Made by a program: the position numbers and the translations under genes. From a virus (taxonomy: Duplodnaviria > Caudoviricetes), in IMG/VR virus record IMGVR_UViG_2974506496_000001, positions 1 to 64,000 of that record: a stretch of 64,000 nucleotides of DNA; one strand, given 5' to 3'. The notes beneath the pieces are model-generated. The model did no database searches and was not told where the DNA came from. It saw only the letters and a program-made list of their open reading frames with translations. Shown here in pieces: positions 8,965 through 61,728 of the stretch (positions are counted from its first letter, which is position 1; every line of letters starts with the position of its first letter).

Positions 8965-11340
8965 ATGAATTTAAATGTGGACTATACAATTTACGTGGAT
9001 AACACCAAGAAGCTTATCCGCACAATGGTCATTAATTCGGCTCAATCAGCTAATATAATTAACGGCCGTATGGATGGCTTGGGGTACGGTCGTGACATCT
9101 ACGACAAGAGTACCTGGAAGTACTACATGAACATGGCCGGGATCTACCATCCGTCCAATGACCGGATGCAGGTGAAGTCACTCGATAACGGTCAGCTCAT
9201 CGACTTTACCCGTGAGAACATGGAGATCCATGTCAGCACCAAACGCAGCTACCAGTACGGCACCGACTATTATAAAGCCCTGGTTGCGCAGTACCCGTAT
9301 CAGATTGCGTTGATCAAAGGGATCTTAAACCCAATTGATCTCAGTGTCTCAACCACCGCCGAGGACTGGCAGATCCTCTATTACGATAAGACGCTGGTAG
9401 AAGACGGTGAAGAGAACCTGATCCCCCGTTTCCAGGAATGGGTCAACACCCTGATCACCCAGACCTATCTGCCGGACTATGTCTACATCACCGAAGATCT
9501 GATGCACCACTTCTATCTTTCCTTAATTGGTGGTTTTGGTCCTGGTGTGATCCTGGGGATTCGCTTAGAGAACATCAAGACCAACCGGGCACACAGTTTC
9601 CACATCTGGTCGCACATTCTGTCGCATGCTGATATTGAGCAGTATCGTCCGTACCTGAACCGCAAACAGATCCTCTATCTGTATCGTAACATTGTGTGGC
9701 ATACCCGCAACCCAGGTGCGCAATACTCCTTCCAGAAGATGATCGATGCCTTCTTAACGGAACGCCGCATCCCATTACAGTCGTACAACGCCCAGCACAA
9801 CACCTCGAGCATTCTGACCAAGATTAAACCCGAGGTGGAGTTCAAGCGTGAACTGCTGAACATGCAAGATGCGATCGCCAATGTGAACTATGTGCGCAGT
9901 ACCCGTGAGATCCTGGAAGATGAAGTGCCGCTGGCGAAGAACAACGCCGACGTGTACGAAGACCGGATCGGGGAAGTCATTCAGGATGTCGGGACCAACC
10001 GCAACAGTAACCTGCCGACCAAAGTGCTGGAATCCAACATGCGGGATCTGTCTGACTCGCTGCCGTTCTCACACTCCCTGACATTACTGAACGAATGGGT
10101 GCGGTTGTCCTCTACGGGCATGTATACCGCGGTGATCACCACCACCAACCCCAACACCGGGCTGACCATGACCATGACAGTAAAGGAAGCGTTTATCCTT
10201 TACCTGTACGGTGTCTGGCAAAGTCACGGGGTTAACCTGGAGACGATCCCGACCTTCCGTGCCAATATGGTAATGAAGATCCCTCGGCCGCAGTTTGCGT
10301 TCTTAAAAGCACAATACGGCTCGCAGCATGTCACCGACGAGTTCATCAAGTACGCCCTGAATCTCTGTCCGGATATCCCGGCGATCATCTCGACAGAAAC
10401 CTTCTATGCGAAGACACTTGAGATTAATGCCGCGACTCAATTGCACCGGGATCTGTACAGTTACCGTAACCATTATCATGCGCGGGCAGAATTCGAAGCC
10501 CTGGCCTTTGGTTTCTACCAGGATCAGGATTGCGACATCAACTCCGGCATGACCTATAAGGAGTTCTTCAAACAGAAGGGGTGGGACTTCACTGACTTAC
10601 CGCCGGAAGAGTGGGTGGTGTTCGCCAACAAGGTCTCCTCCATTGCCACCGGGTTGGATACGGCTAACCAGCAGAAGCTTGCGGATATTCAGCAAGCCAT
10701 GTTGGGCCTGACCATGCAACTGTCCAGTTACACCATCCAAGTGATCAGGAAGATCAATGAAGAAGCGGTGGTGATGCTCGACTGGCCAACCTTGCGTGGG
10801 GGTGACATGCACATGAAGGTCTATCAGCAGTGGCACTTGGTGGATAACCCTGTGCGACCGATTGATACCCACATGCGTGAGAAGAAGACCTACAACCTGA
10901 TCCACGACTTCCCGAAAGGCCATAACTCGGTAGAGCGCAGCTGGCGCTTCTATATCGACACCGCCCGCCAGTTAAGTAGTCAGGGAATCAACTCCCGTTA
11001 CAACTATTTAAACGGTGCACGTATGCGGCTGTGGACGGCTGACGATGCGGCTGGTACCGAGAACGAGTTTGACCAACAGATGACCGTGAAAGATCTGCAA
11101 GGTCTCTGGATTGACCCGTACGGTGATGCCCGTCCACCGGCTGACTTCAGTGCAGAAGTGTTGAACGGATTGTGGACTGATCCGTTACCCGGGATTGCAC
11201 CAATCGTCAGTAGCTTGGGTGGGTTGTGGATCGACGGTCCAAAGAGCAGTGGTTTTGATGAGGATCTCAACGGACTGCATACTGAAGTCCCTGCGGCATT
11301 ACAAGCCTTGCGCAATACCCCGCCTGATAGCACCACGTAA
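8965..11340 (+). CDS. Virion structural protein, baseplate wedge-like (phiKZ gp128-like)
   Basis: TWKYYMNMAGIYH motif; GGGAGA RBS; C-terminal LxGLW repeats. Confidence 0.65.
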   Translation: MNLNVDYTIYVDNTKKLIRTMVINSAQSANIINGRMDGLGYGRDIYDKSTWKYYMNMAGIYHPSNDRMQVKSLDNGQLIDFTRENMEIHVSTKRSYQYGTDYYKALVAQYPYQIALIKGILNPIDLSVSTTAEDWQILYYDKTLVEDGEENLIPRFQEWVNTLITQTYLPDYVYITEDLMHHFYLSLIGGFGPGVILGIRLENIKTNRAHSFHIWSHILSHADIEQYRPYLNRKQILYLYRNIVWHTRNPGAQYSFQKMIDAFLTERRIPLQSYNAQHNTSSILTKIKPEVEFKRELLNMQDAIANVNYVRSTREILEDEVPLAKNNADVYEDRIGEVIQDVGTNRNSNLPTKVLESNMRDLSDSLPFSHSLTLLNEWVRLSSTGMYTAVITTTNPNTGLTMTMTVKEAFILYLYGVWQSHGVNLETIPTFRANMVMKIPRPQFAFLKAQYGSQHVTDEFIKYALNLCPDIPAIISTETFYAKTLEINAATQLHRDLYSYRNHYHARAEFEALAFGFYQDQDCDINSGMTYKEFFKQKGWDFTDLPPEEWVVFANKVSSIATGLDTANQQKLADIQQAMLGLTMQLSSYTIQVIRKINEEAVVMLDWPTLRGGDMHMKVYQQWHLVDNPVRPIDTHMREKKTYNLIHDFPKGHNSVERSWRFYIDTARQLSSQGINSRYNYLNGARMRLWTADDAAGTENEFDQQMTVKDLQGLWIDPYGDARPPADFSAEVLNGLWTDPLPGIAPIVSSLGGLWIDGPKSSGFDEDLNGLHTEVPAALQALRNTPPDSTT

Positions 11341-14040: not shown

Positions 14041-14910
14041 ATGAACATTCTGGGTAAAGATCCACAACAGTTGATCAAAGAACTCGCTGCCGGTCACAAC
14101 AATGTCACGTTGGTGCCAGGGGCGACGAAAGTGGTTAACTTTCAAAACCTGGCTGGTACGGTTGGTATTGACGCACAGGCGGATATTGTCCCGGCTGACC
14201 CGACCGTCTATTACCGTAAGAAGACCATCCAGTTTGGCAAGATCGATCTGTCCAAGCATTGGCTGAATCAGCGTCTGACGATCCCACTGCAGGCGAACTC
14301 AACCAGCCACAGCATCTTACCACAGCTGATCAAACGTTATGGTCTGAAACTGTCCACCGACGATCTGGTGTTGACCACGGTAAATACCAGTAAAGATATC
14401 TGGGAATTACCGATTCGGGTGAAAGCCACCTCGTGGGTCTTTAAGAACACGCTGGACAACATTATCGTCTACGCCACCGATGTCAGCACTGATCTGCAGT
14501 ATGTGATCAAACGCCCATCGTTGACTGGGCTGGCGTATCCTTCTGCCGATACCACCAAGATGCAAGGCCCGCTGTTAAGCTACGGTATGCATTACAGTGT
14601 GTATACCGGACAGAACGAAGCTCTCCGCAATGCGAAGGTCGGTTACAAGATGATTGTGGCCTCTGACGATGACTGGGCGATTGCGGATCTGCTGTCGGAC
14701 TATACGGGTCTGGCATGGTCGTTTAAACAGACTGGACCAAGCCTGTACAATGCCGAAGTGATGTATAATGGTGTTGCAACGAATGTACCGAGCACCTATT
14801 CCCATCTTGATCGCAATAGCGCCACGAACTTCTTAATTCTGAAGCTCAGTGGTGTTGGTGATGTGGGCGGGTATGTTGCTATTGGTTATACGATCGAAGT
14901 TGATCCGTAG
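14041..14910 (+). CDS. Virion structural protein, paralog family A
   Basis: FGKIDL and LYNAEVMYNG motifs. Confidence 0.65.
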   Translation: MNILGKDPQQLIKELAAGHNNVTLVPGATKVVNFQNLAGTVGIDAQADIVPADPTVYYRKKTIQFGKIDLSKHWLNQRLTIPLQANSTSHSILPQLIKRYGLKLSTDDLVLTTVNTSKDIWELPIRVKATSWVFKNTLDNIIVYATDVSTDLQYVIKRPSLTGLAYPSADTTKMQGPLLSYGMHYSVYTGQNEALRNAKVGYKMIVASDDDWAIADLLSDYTGLAWSFKQTGPSLYNAEVMYNGVATNVPSTYSHLDRNSATNFLILKLSGVGDVGGYVAIGYTIEVDP

Positions 14911-14923
14911 CAGTGTATAAATG

Positions 14924-14949
14924 AAGGGTGGGGCTTCGGCTCTGCCCTT
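14924..14949 (+). terminator. GC-rich UUCG hairpin between structural genes and ruvC
   Basis: AAGGGTGGGGC-TTCG-GCTCTGCCCTT; no U-tract. Confidence 0.45.
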
Positions 14950-14959
14950 AGGGAGTCTT

Positions 14960-15565
14960 ATGATGGTGTTGCAAGATGGACGCCCGGTGGAAGAGTTACT
15001 GCAGGTCTCCATTGACCCCGGAACTGATACCGTCGGTGTTACGTTATTGGGATTGCATCCGATCACCCTTGAGATGACCTGGAAGGAATCCTTTACGTTG
15101 TATGGATCATTGCTTAATTACCGCTCAGAGCTCGTGTTCCAGGAAGACCGGAATCGTGATGCACGTTTAAAGGGCCTCACTGATGCCCTGTTGCGTTATC
15201 TCTGTACGGTGCGGCCTCACGTAGTGGTGTTTGAAGATAACTTCTTACGTCACTCCCCACAGGCCTTTAAAGCACTGATCGAATCGGTGGAAGCCATTAA
15301 GCGCGCAGTCTGGGGATATAACCCATACTTACCGTTCTATGAGATCTCTCCGATGCAGGCGAAAGGTGCCGTGAATGCGATTGCTCCTCGCGGACAAAAA
15401 CATGATAAGGAGCTAGTGCGTAAGGGACTGATGAACTATCCACGTTTACAAATCCCTCATGCTATTTTGCAGACACTCTCTGAGCACGCAGTTGACTCCG
15501 TCGCCATCGGCATCTACGGCCTGGAACAATTGTCGCTCGCATTGAGTGCTGCTCATTGGAGATAA
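14960..15565 (+). CDS. ruvC: RuvC-like Holliday junction resolvase
   Basis: SIDPGTDTVG, VVFED, QAKGAV, HAVDSVAIG match the RuvC acidic motifs; GGGAG RBS before ATG 14960. Confidence 0.8.
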   Translation: MMVLQDGRPVEELLQVSIDPGTDTVGVTLLGLHPITLEMTWKESFTLYGSLLNYRSELVFQEDRNRDARLKGLTDALLRYLCTVRPHVVVFEDNFLRHSPQAFKALIESVEAIKRAVWGYNPYLPFYEISPMQAKGAVNAIAPRGQKHDKELVRKGLMNYPRLQIPHAILQTLSEHAVDSVAIGIYGLEQLSLALSAAHWR

Positions 15566-49540: not shown

Positions 49541-49566
49541 GGGGAGGGAAACCTCCCCTTATGCCG
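49541..49566 (+). terminator. Hairpin-TTATGCCG element
   Basis: GGGGAGG-GAAA-CCTCCCC followed by TTATGCCG. Confidence 0.75.
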
Positions 49567-55886: not shown

Positions 55887-57038
55887 ATGCGTCAGTATTT
55901 GGATGGGATTCGTTACATCTTTGAGAACGGGTCACAACGAGGGGATCGCACCGGGGTAGGTACGTTGTCGGTGTTCTCGATGAAGCAGACTTATGATCTG
56001 CGTCTGGGATTCCCACTGGTCACCAGTAAGAAAGTGCGTATCGATTTTATTATCGAAGAGCTCATCTCTTTCCTGTCGGGTAATCCCGATATGCCGGGTG
56101 TGGGTATCTGGGATGATTGGCGTGTCAAAGACGAAGTCTCTCGTGAAGTCCCGTTAGAGAACCACGAGCGTTTAAAACTCTGGGTTGAGAAGTCGGACCT
56201 GAAGTATAACGTTGCTTACCTTCAACTCAATGCGATGGGTTCTGTCGAAGCGGGTCATCGTTTCCTGGATGAGCAAGGGATTCCACGTAACAGAAAAGAA
56301 GTACTGGTAGCAGAAGGTGCACTCAATGCACCCTATGGGCCAGCGTGGCGTGCGTGGAAAGGTCGTCAGGGCGAAGTGCATGATCAGATCAGTTATCTGC
56401 TCAAGCTGCTTAAAAACAATCCTACGAGCCGTCGTATGCTATTGTCTGCCTGGGACCCGGCGAATATGCCGGATGAGTCTATCAGTCCGCAGGATAACAT
56501 CATTGATGGCAAGCCACCTCTGACTCCGTGTCATTGGGCGTTTGAGCTGTACACTGACGAAATCCTGGCAGAGGAACGCCTTGATTGGGTCGAAGCTAAT
56601 GCACCTAGTCTCTGGGAAGACTACAATGATCGTTCAGGACGTGGTCAGTGGTTAGGCGACACAGACAGTAAGCGCCTTCATGAATTCCTGGACGAAGCCG
56701 GCGTACCGAAGTATTACCTGGATCTGAAGTATCACCAACGTTCCTGTGACTATATGGTTGGCGTGCCGTATAACATCGCCAGCTATGCGGTGTTGCAGCA
56801 CATGTTCGCCGCCACCTGTAACATGATCCCGCGGATACTGGAAGCGGATATGACTAACATCCATATCTACAACTTCCACAAAACCAATGCGGTCATGCAG
56901 GCCAGTCGCAGCCCACGCGCACTACCCACTCTGAAGGTACTCGCCGCTCACGATAAGTTGGAAGACTATACGTTGGAAGACTTTGAACTCGAAGGTTATG
57001 ATCCGCATCCTTTTATTAAATATGAAAGAGCGGTCTGA
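55887..57038 (+). CDS. thyA: Thymidylate synthase with two insertions
   Basis: DRTGVGT, PTSRR, LTPCH catalytic Cys, QRSCD..GVPYNIASY with the dUMP-specific Asn, HIY. Confidence 0.93.
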   Translation: MRQYLDGIRYIFENGSQRGDRTGVGTLSVFSMKQTYDLRLGFPLVTSKKVRIDFIIEELISFLSGNPDMPGVGIWDDWRVKDEVSREVPLENHERLKLWVEKSDLKYNVAYLQLNAMGSVEAGHRFLDEQGIPRNRKEVLVAEGALNAPYGPAWRAWKGRQGEVHDQISYLLKLLKNNPTSRRMLLSAWDPANMPDESISPQDNIIDGKPPLTPCHWAFELYTDEILAEERLDWVEANAPSLWEDYNDRSGRGQWLGDTDSKRLHEFLDEAGVPKYYLDLKYHQRSCDYMVGVPYNIASYAVLQHMFAATCNMIPRILEADMTNIHIYNFHKTNAVMQASRSPRALPTLKVLAAHDKLEDYTLEDFELEGYDPHPFIKYERAV

Positions 57039-57504: not shown

Positions 57505-57521
57505 TCAGACCTATATCACGT
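57505..57521 (+). promoter_or_regulatory. Candidate early promoter TCAGACCTATATCACGT
   Basis: Near-identical to 40038-40054; TATATTAC-like core. Confidence 0.6.
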
Positions 57522-57568: not shown

Positions 57569-58945
57569 ATGGCTGCATTAAAATCTAAAGTTGAACTGTT
57601 TCACTGGTATCAGGAACTGAAAACTGAATTTAAAACCGGCAAGATTACCGTGTTCGAATTTGAGCGGCAAGTGCTCAGCGAAATTCTTTCCCTGACCGAT
57701 ACTGGTAAAACACCATCTACTGCCAAAATCAGTCTGGTAGTGGACATCCTTAATTCTGTGGTTTTTGATCATGTGTTTACCGCAGACGGTATCATTGACC
57801 TGGACAACATGCTCGCTCGTGAACACGTACGCAACATTTCGGAATTGACGGCAGCACGCAATAACTTTATTACCATACAAGCCCAGGCCCGTCTGAACAA
57901 AGAAAAGGAACAGACTGCGAAACCAGCAGAGCAGAAGGCGTTTGCCAAGTTTCCAACGAAAGAAGAGCTCGAATATTGGGTTAATGCCAGAAAGCTATTC
58001 CGTTATGGTAACCCCAATACGCTCGGCACTGAAGCATACCAGGAGGTTGTCAAATACTGGCATCTGGTCGATAAATATCTGGGTACATTAAAACTGGAAC
58101 TGGATCACACCGACCCTAACTACGTCGATAACATCCTGTTGATTGACTACTTTGTATCGTTGGTCGCCAAGCAAGAGGTTCCTGAGGAAGAACGCAGGCA
58201 TCTGAAAGACACACTTAGCAGTCTATATGCGTGCCCCATTAAAACCCCACACATCGATGCATTTGTCGAACGTGACCAACACCCCCTTCCAGTTAAGCCA
58301 AAACAACCACCCATCGCGCAACAAGCCATCGACCGCGCTATTGCCTGGCGTGAAGAGGAAACCAAAACAAACCATCAGCAAAAAGACATATTACGAGAAT
58401 TCGCCGATCAATACTGTCCGGTAATGGTGGCCAAGCAACATGCCACTCAGCAGTTGTTTGATTTCGTTGCTCGTGCGGTGAAACGTGTCTTGACCGCCAT
58501 TGCTCAGCCAAACAACCCGGAAGACGCCGAGATGCTGGCAAAAGGTCATGCCATCAACATTCTCAATGTTAAGCATGGTGTAATTGGTGTCAGTACCACG
58601 ATTACCAGAAACGGTCTGGTCAAGTTACGCATCTTCGCTGAACGTGAACTATGTAACGAGGACTACGGTATTCCGACTCTGTCGTATAATCAAGTCCGTC
58701 AATCACCTCATGCAACGTTCAGCATACCAATGCCGGCGCTGATAGATGGGTTCATTAACATGTGGGATATCCCTAATCAGGCCCCTCGCCATATGCATAA
58801 TAGCGTAGGCGGTATGTTGGGTAATCCCTATCCGTTACAGCAGCTTGATGGTTTGATGTCAGCTATTGCAAGAGAAGCAGCCGAGTACGGCGTTACGCCT
58901 ACTTATGGCATGATCGAAGACAGCCTTATCGTTGTGCTGCATTAA
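57569..58945 (+). CDS. Multi-domain hypothetical protein with a duplicated helical (SHOCT-like) domain
   Basis: AAGGAG RBS before ATG 57569; N-terminus similar to 59009. Confidence 0.6.
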   Translation: MAALKSKVELFHWYQELKTEFKTGKITVFEFERQVLSEILSLTDTGKTPSTAKISLVVDILNSVVFDHVFTADGIIDLDNMLAREHVRNISELTAARNNFITIQAQARLNKEKEQTAKPAEQKAFAKFPTKEELEYWVNARKLFRYGNPNTLGTEAYQEVVKYWHLVDKYLGTLKLELDHTDPNYVDNILLIDYFVSLVAKQEVPEEERRHLKDTLSSLYACPIKTPHIDAFVERDQHPLPVKPKQPPIAQQAIDRAIAWREEETKTNHQQKDILREFADQYCPVMVAKQHATQQLFDFVARAVKRVLTAIAQPNNPEDAEMLAKGHAINILNVKHGVIGVSTTITRNGLVKLRIFAERELCNEDYGIPTLSYNQVRQSPHATFSIPMPALIDGFINMWDIPNQAPRHMHNSVGGMLGNPYPLQQLDGLMSAIAREAAEYGVTPTYGMIEDSLIVVLH

Positions 58946-58952
58946 TTCACAC

Positions 58953-58982
58953 GGGGAGGTTTCCCTCCCCCTTTTATTTTTT
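58953..58982 (+). terminator. Intrinsic terminator
   Basis: GGGGAGG-TTTC-CCTCCCC followed by CTTTTATTTTTT. Confidence 0.65.
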
Positions 58983-59008: not shown

Positions 59009-59710
59009 ATGAACAAAGAAACTTATACTACCTGGTACAATGGATTAAAAGAAAGATTGGCGACTGGGCACATTAATCAGGAACACTACGAGACACTTAT
59101 TGTTGACAATCTAAGTTCATTGATTACTCATTTCTTCAATAGTCGATACGACGATGGTCATATGTCTCTGGAGGAGCATTTTGCGTTAGTTAATCATTAT
59201 TTCGAACTGGTTGCTGATGCAGAAATATCAGAACGCAGTGCCATGCTCATGGTACGTTCTGTAGCTAGCAGTATTCAAAAGCTACCAGCGGCTAAAGCCT
59301 TCGCAGAGAAACATAACACTCCGGCGCCGTCAATTAAAGAAATTCTTGGTAGTCGACCTGGTTTACTGCGTAAGCATGCTGCCAGCACGACCGAGAAGAT
59401 GATAGGGTGTCCGGTGATCACCCAGGCCAACGAACCTGAGAACGAAGTAACCATTGACTTACCCTGGAAATTGGCATTGCACGTTTACAAAGGGTTCCTG
59501 GTAAAGGCGCTGATGTCAAAGCACGGATATAAATACAGTGATGCGTATAACTACATTACTGATCATCAGAACAAATACGACGAACTCTTGGCAGAAGTCC
59601 TCAACAACATTATTGCTAATGAGGAATCGCATCTGGTGTCGGTAGGTGGCGGCATCACTGCAGCGGGTACTGGTCTGGTGGTAAGCGGGATTATTAAGCC
59701 GGAGGAGTGA
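59009..59710 (+). CDS. Helical N-terminal domain fused to an RNA polymerase beta-prime fragment (switch 2 plus dock), non-catalytic
   Basis: Residues ~105-203 align by eye with beta-prime KSL..[29 protein letters not shown]; no NRxPTLH or NADFDGD. Confidence 0.65.
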   Translation: MNKETYTTWYNGLKERLATGHINQEHYETLIVDNLSSLITHFFNSRYDDGHMSLEEHFALVNHYFELVADAEISERSAMLMVRSVASSIQKLPAAKAFAEKHNTPAPSIKEILGSRPGLLRKHAASTTEKMIGCPVITQANEPENEVTIDLPWKLALHVYKGFLVKALMSKHGYKYSDAYNYITDHQNKYDELLAEVLNNIIANEESHLVSVGGGITAAGTGLVVSGIIKPEE

Positions 59711-60270
59711 TGAAAGGAGAGATAGAGACACGCTTCAGAAGACACTACGGCAACCACATTAAACGGGGTAGTGATATCGCAGTGCCTTTATACCACATTA
59801 GTCTACAGAATGACTTGGAGGGGCTATGGCGACCTAAAGCCCCTGACTCGCCATTTGATATTCCGAAGAAACCCAACATCATTACTGAAATGCCGCTCCC
59901 GCGTATCTGTGTAGCACCATCTATCGAACAGTGCTTCTGGGCAATCTATCCCAATATCTCTAAGCTCTTTGAAGAGGAAGAATACGCAGCGGTTTGTTTT
60001 GCGGTTTATCAACCGATTCTGCATGCCGGTATTGCTGTCGTGGATACCAGTACGTTAACGCAATGCCGACTAGTGCACGATGCACATATTACCGGCGAGC
60101 ATTGGTTACTTAGTGATACCACCATGTGTGTGATCGACTTTATTCAGGTTAATAACACCTCACACGGCGAGTTCGTAAAGTTCCATCCGTTTAATACCCC
60201 GGTTGGTAACGAATGGGAGCTCGCCCCTAAAAATGTTGTTTATCATTCACTTAAATTAACGGAGTTGTAA
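59710..60270 (+). CDS. Putative ADP-ribosyltransferase-fold protein
   Basis: LYHIS, PRICVAPSIEQC, VHDAHITGEHW in ART-like strand order (H, S/T region, E). Confidence 0.45.
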   Translation: MKGEIETRFRRHYGNHIKRGSDIAVPLYHISLQNDLEGLWRPKAPDSPFDIPKKPNIITEMPLPRICVAPSIEQCFWAIYPNISKLFEEEEYAAVCFAVYQPILHAGIAVVDTSTLTQCRLVHDAHITGEHWLLSDTTMCVIDFIQVNNTSHGEFVKFHPFNTPVGNEWELAPKNVVYHSLKLTEL

Positions 60271-60274
60271 ATCC

Positions 60275-60919
60275 ATGGTAACTGCTAGAAAAGCTAATAA
60301 GACCTTAGGTGAGCACGCAGTGGCTCATGAGGCAGTAACACGCTTAGGTAGCAACAAGAAAGTCAAACCAGTTAAACCGCTTTGGACACTGGAGAACATC
60401 GAGGACAATCTGGTTGGTCAAGGCATCCTTGCCTACTTGAAACGCCACACGTCGTTATCGATCCGTGATATCAACACCGCGGCTAACCGCCTGACGAAGA
60501 TTGCTGATTCAGATATAAAGGAAGGGAAAGCGCGTGATTACGTGGCACGAGTTATTGGGTACAACAATTACGACGCTCTCAACGTCACCGTTCGTGCAGC
60601 GGTACCTGTGCGCAATCATGTACAACGTCGTAAAGCAAATCAGCCGGTCACAGAGTTGTTGATAGAAGACGAAGAACTGCCGCCGGTAACACGTACTGAA
60701 ATCAACCCCTTGGTGATGTTAGCCCTACAGCGTGAGATCTCTAAACGCGGCTTTCGTCTACTGGGTAAGAACTACCGGGCTTTCGTTAACAAGGATAACC
60801 CCGAGCACACCTTTACGTTGATGCAGGCGTATAACTACCTTGCCAAACAACTGGGTTATCCGGATTATCACTCTATGCCCCGTCAATACCCAATCATTAA
60901 CTTGCGCTACGTCGATTAA
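60275..60919 (+). CDS. Protein with two copies of a small helical domain
   Basis: ARDYVARVIGYNNYDAL and AYNYLAKQLGYPDYHSM. Confidence 0.55.
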   Translation: MVTARKANKTLGEHAVAHEAVTRLGSNKKVKPVKPLWTLENIEDNLVGQGILAYLKRHTSLSIRDINTAANRLTKIADSDIKEGKARDYVARVIGYNNYDALNVTVRAAVPVRNHVQRRKANQPVTELLIEDEELPPVTRTEINPLVMLALQREISKRGFRLLGKNYRAFVNKDNPEHTFTLMQAYNYLAKQLGYPDYHSMPRQYPIINLRYVD

Positions 60920-60941
60920 CCTATTGTAAGGAATAAAGAAC

Positions 60942-61691
60942 ATGACAACGACTTTCCCGAAAGAGATGAATGCTGCTTTCCATCCTGATAACGAACAAAC
61001 CACCCAGCTGTGCAAAACGATCCAGCAGATCAGCGGGGTGGAGATCAAACGTGTACATGTGGTGATGGCGATCCACCATTACAAACAAAACGATGCGGCA
61101 CATCAGCCTGACCACATGCTGGCGGTCTTAGCAGAAGCAGCCCACATCATCCAGTCGTTTCCTGACCTGGAGAAATGGCGCACCCAGATCATGTTAGGGT
61201 GTCTGTTCCATGACACCCACTGTCACATCGATCGGGATATGCACCACCTGCTAGGCGCCGAACATGCCCAAGAGGCATTACTGGAGTATGCGTGTGGTTA
61301 TGGGATGTCACGTGCGGATGTCTACCTGATCAGTCAGGCCGTACTGGAGCATCGGGCTTCCTGGAAGTACCCGCGTATTAACCCTGTATCCAACGCTGTG
61401 GCGTCTGCAGATCGTGGCTACCCTGATCTAAAGAAATACATCCGTCGTGCTGTACAGTACCGTTACAAGCGCATGGCAGTCATCAACATGAACACCATCA
61501 TCGATGAGTCGATCGAACACATGGTAGAGAAGTTCGGTGATGGCGGTTATGCCTGGGAAAGCTACCCGACGTATGCAGCGGTGATGCACGGTGATGCGAT
61601 TCAACAAGTGAAGCAACAACTGCGCAGTAAAGAAGGAAAGGCACAGCTCAAGGAGTACGCTGAACTCCACTTTGATGAGTGGGTAGAATAA
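60942..61691 (+). CDS. HD-domain phosphohydrolase
   Basis: H...H, LFHD, HH..GA, EH, ADR motifs. Confidence 0.8.
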   Translation: MTTTFPKEMNAAFHPDNEQTTQLCKTIQQISGVEIKRVHVVMAIHHYKQNDAAHQPDHMLAVLAEAAHIIQSFPDLEKWRTQIMLGCLFHDTHCHIDRDMHHLLGAEHAQEALLEYACGYGMSRADVYLISQAVLEHRASWKYPRINPVSNAVASADRGYPDLKKYIRRAVQYRYKRMAVINMNTIIDESIEHMVEKFGDGGYAWESYPTYAAVMHGDAIQQVKQQLRSKEGKAQLKEYAELHFDEWVE

Positions 61692-61699
61692 GCTACGTG

Positions 61700-61728
61700 G
61701 CCGGAGGATTACCTCCGGCTGTTATGCC
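61700..61728 (+). terminator. Hairpin-TTATGCC element
   Basis: GCCGGAGG-ATTA-CCTCCGGC followed by TGTTATGCC. Confidence 0.7.

Follow-up and report, generated by a model that had tools for sequence, protein, structure and literature searches.

In this study, we analysed a 64-kb stretch at the start of a virus record of 271,182 bp (IMG/VR record IMGVR_UViG_2974506496_000001, positions 1 to 64,000; hereafter the window), and we found that one of its genes almost certainly encodes a non-catalytic partial paralog of the N-terminal half of the beta-prime subunit (beta'-N) of the phage's own non-virion RNA polymerase (nvRNAP). This separate gene, which is under purifying selection, has retained switch 2 and the dock together with a helical N-terminal domain of its own and an invariant glycine-rich tail, and there is hardly any doubt that the Zn finger of beta'-N and its catalytic double-psi beta-barrel (DPBB) are gone from it. 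The region is 99% identical to the Erwinia amylovora jumbo phages Desertfox, Deimos-Minion, MadMel and Rebecca (genus Agricanvirus). It is reported that phages of this type are PhiKZ-like, form a nucleus and carry two multisubunit RNA polymerases each (bioRxiv 10.1101/2023.02.24.529968; PMC7598289). The gene and its parts are as follows.

59009..59710, plus strand: beta-prime-fragment gene, 233 amino acids (aa), protein P0001, phrog_11276, of the RAY gp070 type
59009..59338, plus strand: N-terminal helical domain, aa 1-110, all helical, with an AlphaFold2 (AF2) predicted local distance difference test (pLDDT) value of about 90
59339..59623, plus strand: beta-prime-derived core, aa 111-205, comprising the switch-2 motif, a beta-hairpin and the dock helices
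59624..59707, plus strand: Gly-rich C-terminal tail, aa 206-233, ending ...SHLVSVGGGITAAGTGLVVSGIIKPEE

A first-pass annotation, made from the letters of the window alone, had described a stand-alone beta-prime fragment of the PhiKZ type, composed of switch 2 and dock, at 59321-59617 (aa 105-203 of the 233-aa open reading frame), and the PHROG, hhalign, phmmer and structural matches obtained here agree with that description. The switch-2 motif PGLLRK...G[R/C]PVIT occupies aa 116-138 and the dock helices aa 151-203. The protein matched phrog_2987 ('RNA polymerase beta subunit') with E 4.1e-17, aa 54-205 lying on positions 226-368 of the 478 in the profile, and phmmer aligned aa 111-204 with residues 292-385 of PhiKZ gp55 (7ogp_A in the Protein Data Bank, PDB), ungapped over 94 residues (E 1.6e-5). 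The family profile also recovered gp55 (E 6e-10) and AR9 beta' (E 7.7e-5) from the PDB, while hhalign of the fragment family against 36 canonical beta'-N sequences placed aa 111-205 on residues 290-385 of the phage's own beta'-N with a probability of 99.5% (E 9.6e-23). When 1.84 billion proteins were searched with the profile, 228 matched at E<=1e-3. Among the best 150 of them, all except the fragment family and P0013, a chimeric gene model, align at the expected beta'-N position, which is about 260-370 in proteins of roughly 370-570 aa, and the seven short matches that were inspected (P0013 aside) are truncated beta'-N pieces.

The direct sequence match to bacterial beta' alone was not significant (E 0.16-0.53), and the significance of the beta-prime match comes through the phage beta' family. 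A profile hit had been predicted by the first-pass annotation and was obtained with phrog_2987 and with hhalign, but the Pfam Rpb1 domains from which it had been expected miss the fragment; these domains barely detect the canonical gene. The dock helices of the AF2 model were superposed on gp55 with Z 9.5 and a root-mean-square deviation of 1.6 A over 58 residues, or Z 10.0 over 73, and they also superposed on AR9 beta' (Z 9.2) and on residues 359-474 of bacterial beta' (Z about 7). The structural likeness to the beta-prime dock was thus seen by superposition, but Foldseek on its own gave no significant PDB match for the fragment model, nor for the model of the ADP-ribosyltransferase (ART)-fold protein encoded next to it.

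The similarity stops before NRxPTLH, as had been noticed earlier. The fragment lacks this motif and DFDGD, there is no DxDGD anywhere in its 233 aa, and the protein ends 28 residues past the dock. The phrog_2987 profile is covered only from position 226, positions 1-225 being unmatched, and the N-terminal four-Cys Zn site is absent, with a single Cys in the whole fragment against C72, C74, C87 and C90 of the canonical protein. Complete beta'-N genes lie elsewhere. The catalytic non-virion gene is located at 183,937-185,424 of the genome, directly after the chimallin gene, and has NADFDGD, and the virion gene at about 128 kb has GGDYDGD, which confirms the remark that the fragment gene sits far from the RNA polymerase genes. 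These complete genes and the motifs missing from the fragment indicate that it is a third, partial and non-catalytic paralog. The idea of a split gene, in which the 458-aa protein encoded upstream and the 186-aa protein encoded downstream supply the missing beta'-N parts, was rejected at an hhalign probability of 0.2-0.3%, and the 458-aa protein showed no similarity to beta'-N by hhalign.

The 233-aa protein spans the whole of phrog_11276, a function-unknown family of the Agricanvirus clade (positions 1-233 of 233, E 8.3e-160), and in the profile search the fragment was found only in this clade. We collected 11 homolog clusters with 55-98% identity, all of them stand-alone proteins of 233-270 aa, on contigs reaching 190-288 kb. 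A frameshift in relatives had been named by the first-pass annotation as a finding that would speak against its proposal; the frame is intact across the 11 clusters. The ratio of nonsynonymous to synonymous substitution rates (dN/dS) was 0.12-0.22 when computed over the whole gene, 0.11-0.19 over the beta-prime part and 0.007-0.09 over the tail. Synonymous change is saturated across the gene, and the synonymous sites of the tail vary as they do elsewhere, so that constraint is strongest in the tail and acts there on the protein. Judged from these sequences, the fragment gene is not a pseudogene.

The alignment with the phage's own beta'-N, which had been proposed as a check, gave an identity of just 21%. 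In the tree of the shared region, the fragment family stands on a long stem (1.84 substitutions per site) and its placement is unresolved. A recent duplication of the phage's own beta'-N was not supported, given the low identity, the long branch and the lack of grouping with the own gene. The sequences suggest either an old or fast-evolving duplicate or a transfer from another jumbo phage, which are indistinguishable here. As a separate observation, the viral 84-aa entry I1VXK4 of BFVD matches part of the fragment model (Foldseek probability 1.00, E 0.05), and its accession series also includes the 478-aa I1VXH8, found lower in the same Foldseek list. Going by the model, I1VXK4 may represent a further short protein of beta' type, encoded by a different phage.

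The first-pass annotation regarded the N-terminal part as an unrelated helical domain. This holds insofar as the hhalign homology begins at aa 111, but the PHROG and AR9 alignments reach weakly to about aa 53. At its start, over the first ~31-37 aa, the domain has a SHOCT-like helical hairpin with a G.I...E[FY]E pattern, which is common to the upstream 458-aa protein (hhalign of aa 8-38, 89%, E 2e-6; 51% with whole profiles); Pfam SHOCT (PF09851) itself matched the hairpin weakly, with E 0.26 and 11.5 bits against a cut-off of 27. A structure search with aa 1-110 returned designed helical repeats as the only matches, with no specific relative, and the ESM Atlas search with this domain returned nothing. 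The proposal of a helical module in three copies was abandoned, as only the N-terminal ~31 aa are supported and the second proposed copy reached just 1.3% in hhalign.

The segment of the switch-2 motif and hairpin (aa 116-150) is conserved in sequence, yet its pLDDT is below 50 in isolation, and the dock helices (aa 151-203) reach values in the 80s. Of the 28 tail positions, 23 do not vary among the 12 sequences compared, and another 4 are conserved to at least 90%. The AF2 model gives the tail a pLDDT below 30 and no helix, and it is predicted to be disordered. With regard to a possible membrane-spanning C-terminal anchor, a hand calculation on the tail gave a Kyte-Doolittle mean of about 1.7 but a biological-scale insertion energy of about +3 kcal/mol, the latter owing to 6 Gly among the 21 residues counted. 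No further copies of the tail were found in the genome, and a PDB sequence search with it gave a chance antibody match only. Several ideas about the tail were dismissed. Its descent from the first DPBB strands is a by-eye pattern only, and hmmalign leaves the tail unaligned to the NRNPSL region. An overlapping DNA or RNA element does not account for the conservation of the tail, since the synonymous codon differences in the tail (0.50) equal those in the rest of the gene; only the last three tail codons double as the downstream Shine-Dalgarno sequence. The notion of a portable module came from P0013, which is common with the fragment only in the last 48 aa and is a chimeric gene model on a eukaryote-like contig with a decayed phage insertion.

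The fragment gene is joined directly to the next gene by the following features.

59701..59712, plus strand: Shine-Dalgarno-like GGAGGAG and TGATG stop/start overlap, from reading the sequence
59710..60270, plus strand: gene of a 186-aa ART-fold protein (phrog_10766), translationally coupled and highly conserved; AF2 pLDDT 87, predicted template modelling score 0.83

The GGAGGAG is built from the fragment's last codons, CCG GAG GAG, and the fragment's stop codon shares its A with the next ATG. An abutting or overlapping arrangement of the two genes is also present in the orthologous loci of AH06 (L004) and of two metagenomic relatives (L007, L008). The 186-aa protein is predicted to be an ADP-ribosyltransferase by its fold, a split beta-sheet. 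An unbiased structure search covered 48,161 chains, and its top 50 rows consisted mostly of members of the ADP-ribosyltransferase superfamily, with Z up to 6.1: TreX (6.1), Scabin (5.8), pertussis S1 (5.7) and Arr (5.2), and further NatT, ParT, RES, MbcT, Tpt1, DarT, diphtheria toxin and PARPs. Foldseek agrees with this picture, and the ESM Atlas gives Arr-ms at 0.94. Residues H29, R65, Y100 and E130 are conserved among the ART-fold homologs down to 35% identity, Y100 and E130 being invariant; when they are placed by eye as candidates for an H-Y-E or R-S-E catalytic triad on strands 1, 2 and 5, H29 lies on the first core strand and E130 just before a strand. The protein has no Pfam match and no PDB sequence match, and with no Pfam match the assignment rests on the predicted fold.

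As for the timing of expression, three features upstream of the fragment gene have to be considered.

57510..57519, plus strand: early-promoter-like motif CCTATATCAC, about 50 nt upstream of the 458-aa gene and 1.5 kb upstream of the fragment
57569..58945, plus strand: gene of the upstream 458-aa protein (phrog_11106), which shares its N-terminal hairpin with the fragment
58953..58980, plus strand: terminator-like GC-rich hairpin with a T-run, between the 458-aa gene and the fragment gene

The genome-wide consensus CCTAYATTAC-N4-GTGA occurs at 26 sites on the plus strand and at none on the minus strand (<=1 mismatch), often after tgcaga...tcaga. Copies are present at 57510, 32743 and 40043 of the window and at 65037, 181617 and about 20 more sites of the genome, and the motif stands ahead of operons, the copy at 181617 preceding the chimallin and non-virion beta'-N genes. 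Early-promoter motifs of ~10 nt that are AT-rich have been described for these phages, and the CCTAYATTAC motif fits that description (PMC7598289). From its sequence and distribution, it is probably the early promoter of this phage, read by the virion polymerase. The suggestion that the fragment belongs to a likely early operon agrees with the presence of such a motif upstream. The terminator-like hairpin stands between the motif and the fragment gene, which leaves two possibilities: read-through from the early promoter into the fragment gene, or a promoter of the fragment's own that was not recognised. In a mass spectrometry study of crude lysates (PMC6690015), RAY gp069-gp071 are not listed, which is no evidence either way.

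Two further repeated elements were observed. A GGAGG...CCTCC hairpin followed at once by (T)TTATGCCG, the TATG of which resembles the PhiKZ late-promoter core, occurs at 49543, 53055, 57444 and 61703 of the window and at 64992, 81905, 83641, 189656 and 270272 of the genome. The hairpin at 58955, ahead of the fragment gene, is without the (T)TTATGCCG tail and has the T-run in its place. The motif (T)AATTAACC(TA) precedes start codons by 0-35 nt in 7 copies on the plus strand and 1 on the minus strand (38326, 57540 and 58982 of the window; 79443, 105006, 263107 and 267185 of the genome). Nearly the same leader, ATTAACCTACT.GTG.AGA.TT, is present at 58982 and 79443. By its position, this motif could be a 5'-untranslated-region or translation signal.

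With regard to function, the fragment probably serves, without catalysis of its own, as a binding or regulatory component, either for the ART-fold enzyme or for RNA polymerase partners. More specifically, we tentatively favour, at clearly less than even odds, a complex of the fragment and the ART-fold protein in which the fragment would direct the enzyme to the transcription machinery or restrain its action there. The fragment would be a binding module and not an enzyme, acting as the regulatory or targeting subunit and made in fixed proportion with the ART-fold protein. Its dock and switch-2 surface, disordered alone, would fold onto a partner that normally touches beta'-N, the candidates being the sigma-like gp68 homolog and the beta or beta'-C subunits, while the invariant tail would contact either the ART enzyme or that same partner. 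The outcome would be ADP-ribosylation, or its restraint, aimed at the transcription machinery early in infection. Conservation of a switch-2 segment and a tail that are unfolded by themselves suggests that both fold on a partner, and the strict translational coupling by TGATG suggests the ART as one partner. Neither this coupling nor the strong constraint on the tail had entered the first-pass description of the fragment. It is reported that PhiKZ gp68 contacts gp55, that its linker enters the cleft and that the position of its C-terminal domain is like that of sigma region 4 (PMC8287921, PMC7618050). This domain is near the RNA exit, where the dock lies, and the fragment could therefore bind a gp68 homolog or beta / beta'-C. 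It has also been documented that T4 ARTs modify RNA polymerase (PMC7824862, PMC9503650). In its full form, the proposal is that a nucleus-forming jumbo phage turned switch 2 and dock of its own polymerase into a targeting or restraining subunit of an ART, and that NAD-dependent modification is steered in this way onto phage or host transcription machinery as an early switch; this form we hold to be speculative and unlikely as a whole.

Several observations weigh against such a complex. The ART Z scores are modest (6.1 or lower) and come without a Pfam match. Distant homologs of the ART, with 37-42% identity, have neither a beta-prime fragment nor a Gly-rich-tailed neighbour in their phage contexts, which implies that the enzyme does not generally need such a partner; homologs were seen on unrelated phage contigs at 35-42% identity, one of them (L010) directly after an SNF2 helicase gene. 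The Agricanvirus loci are all syntenic, so the co-occurrence of the two genes within them is not independent evidence. Moreover, besides the 21% identity, the fragment profile scores the beta'-N of its own genome at 18.8 bits, compared with 46-50 bits for the beta'-N of Noxifer or of a Bacillus jumbo phage, and with this low similarity the interfaces for the phage's own polymerase partners may not be preserved.

The same data can be read in other ways. The fragment may modulate the nvRNAP by itself, much as the first-pass annotation had offered as one option, with an incidental ART coupling, by occupying the surfaces of beta'-C, beta or a gp68-like protein that receive switch 2 and dock, either as a placeholder or chaperone during cytoplasmic synthesis and import into the phage nucleus, or as a competitor that delays or tunes assembly. 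We consider this to have roughly one chance in four. Its derivation from the nvRNAP beta'-N family, not the virion one, fits such a role, as do the conservation of a switch-2 motif although it is disordered alone, a promoter-like motif of the kind seen before chimallin and non-virion beta'-N, the early class of the nvRNAP genes in PhiKZ and AR9 (PMC7598289) and the absence of the alpha and omega assembly subunits from jumbo-phage polymerases (PMC7598289, PMC8287921). On the other hand, the fragment exists in the Agricanvirus clade only and all relatives assemble their polymerase without it, its similarity to the own beta'-N is low, and neither the conserved TGATG coupling to the ART nor the strongest constraint on a tail that is not beta-prime is explained. 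A role outside transcription, for which the beta-prime piece is an inherited scaffold only, is improbable in our opinion. The fragment would then be an antitoxin-like inhibitor with a tail that serves as a plug for the ART's NAD site, in the manner of ParS-ParT or Xre-RES, or it would act on another target with the neighbouring protein through their common N-terminal hairpin. The gene order and overlap do resemble pairs of upstream antitoxin and downstream ART toxin, the ART has the toxins ParT, RES, NatT and MbcT among its structural neighbours, no other element is as conserved as the tail, and the hairpin is indeed common to the upstream protein. However, purifying selection extends to the residues of switch 2 and dock (dN/dS 0.11-0.19), the ungapped 94-residue alignment with gp55 suggests that the beta-prime surface still matters, and the distant ART homologs have no comparable partner.

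The first-pass annotation had also considered a decoy for host defence, in which an RNA-polymerase-like surface soaks up a sensor or inhibitor aimed at the phage polymerase. The location in a variable accessory region behind an early-promoter-like motif and the limitation to one clade are compatible with it, but no known defence system is reported to sense this region of beta-prime, PADLOC gives no related signal for the fragment or its neighbours, and a protein with 21% identity to the own beta'-N is a poor mimic; we therefore regard a decoy as very unlikely. That the gene is a functionless, decaying remnant of a duplicated beta'-N gene is close to refuted. It is truncated, lacks the catalytic motifs and has a long branch (1.84 substitutions per site), but its frame is intact in 11 clusters down to 55% identity at constant length, dN/dS is 0.12-0.22 with saturated synonymous change, and the start, the tail and the ART coupling are all conserved.

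The genes of the fragment and the putative ART are followed by two further genes on the same strand.

60275-60919, plus strand: gene of a 214-aa protein, downstream of the ART-fold gene
60942-61691, plus strand: gene of a 249-aa HD-type phosphohydrolase, followed at 61703 by the hairpin and TTATGCC element

No terminator-like site was seen between the ART-fold gene and these two genes (60275..61691). On the upstream side, the longest open reading frame of the phrog_11106 gene begins at GTG 57524 (473 aa), but 4/4 orthologs begin at the position of ATG 57569 (MAALKSK...), and the latter is likely to be the true start, giving a product of 458 rather than 473 aa. The order of thymidylate synthase, a 130-aa gene, a ~460-aa gene, the fragment and a ~187-aa gene, and onward, is conserved in AH06 and the two metagenomic relatives. 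The thymidylate synthase is a single 383-aa open reading frame at 55887-57038 in the window, and in AH06 (L004:775-2769) it is annotated in two pieces around an HNH homing endonuclease gene. A decayed copy of the locus was observed in a 4.7-Mb contig with eukaryote-like, intron-containing gene models (L009, NCBI GCA_054859325.1). The stretch, at 9290-10017 and 14830-15076, is collinear with 59555-61160 of the window and contains 51 codons from the end of the fragment gene, an ART gene with an internal deletion, the gene of the 214-aa protein and the beginning of the HD gene; it is interrupted by a reverse-transcriptase/integrase retroelement, and the start and end of the ART gene still adjoin the tail. 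Its sequence makes a phage-to-eukaryote or symbiont-derived insertion possible.

A figure legend of Prichard 2023 gives PhiKZ gp055 and Goslar gp188 as homologous to RAY gp223 and gp070, and the AH06 record labels the fragment ortholog as a beta' subunit. The bare homology of gp070 to gp055 is therefore already known, although it is not analysed in that legend. In the literature on jumbo-phage polymerases and viral NAD systems (reviews), we did not find a partial, non-catalytic fragment under selection, its own domains, its invariant tail or its coupling to an ART described. The assembly and regulation of the jumbo-phage multisubunit polymerases, which work without alpha, omega and exchangeable sigma factors, are an open question, for which this gene gives a testable handle: it is a conserved non-catalytic derivative of a catalytic subunit, at a separate locus with an early-type motif, coupled to a predicted NAD-using enzyme. 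The reuse of a core element of a polymerase as a protein module that stands alone would also be unusual. Should the ART link prove true, the theme of T4 Alt and Mod extends to phages that bring their own polymerases.

Compared with known systems, the fragment is closest in its core to PhiKZ gp55, RAY gp223 and AR9 beta'-N (phrog_2987; PDB 7OGP, 8QUE, 7S00), which form the N-terminal half of non-virion beta-prime, and it shares with them switch 2 and dock with the PG..RK, RxVIT, (I/L)PW and kY..LL motifs. Unlike these proteins, it has 233 aa instead of about 480-500, lacks the Zn site, the DPBB and DFDGD, and shows no significant hhalign similarity upstream of about aa 111, having its own N-domain and Gly-rich tail. 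Split beta-prime genes, such as cyanobacterial gamma / beta', archaeal A'/A'' and the small virion piece gp244 of SPN3US, also encode a piece separately, but their pieces sum to one enzyme, whereas the genes flanking the fragment are not the missing parts. The predicted enzyme resembles T4 Alt, ModA and ModB in being an ART-fold protein of an early region that is possibly linked to RNA polymerase. The T4 enzymes, however, act alone on host RNA polymerase alpha and are of the R-S-E class, while the predicted ART here is H..Y..E-like and coupled to a polymerase-derived partner. Finally, as in ParS-ParT, Xre-RES and NatR-NatT, the gene of a helical protein overlaps the start of an ART-fold gene; in contrast to those systems, the upstream protein has no Xre/HTH (helix-turn-helix) domain or DUF2384, and the pair belongs to an operon of a lytic phage.

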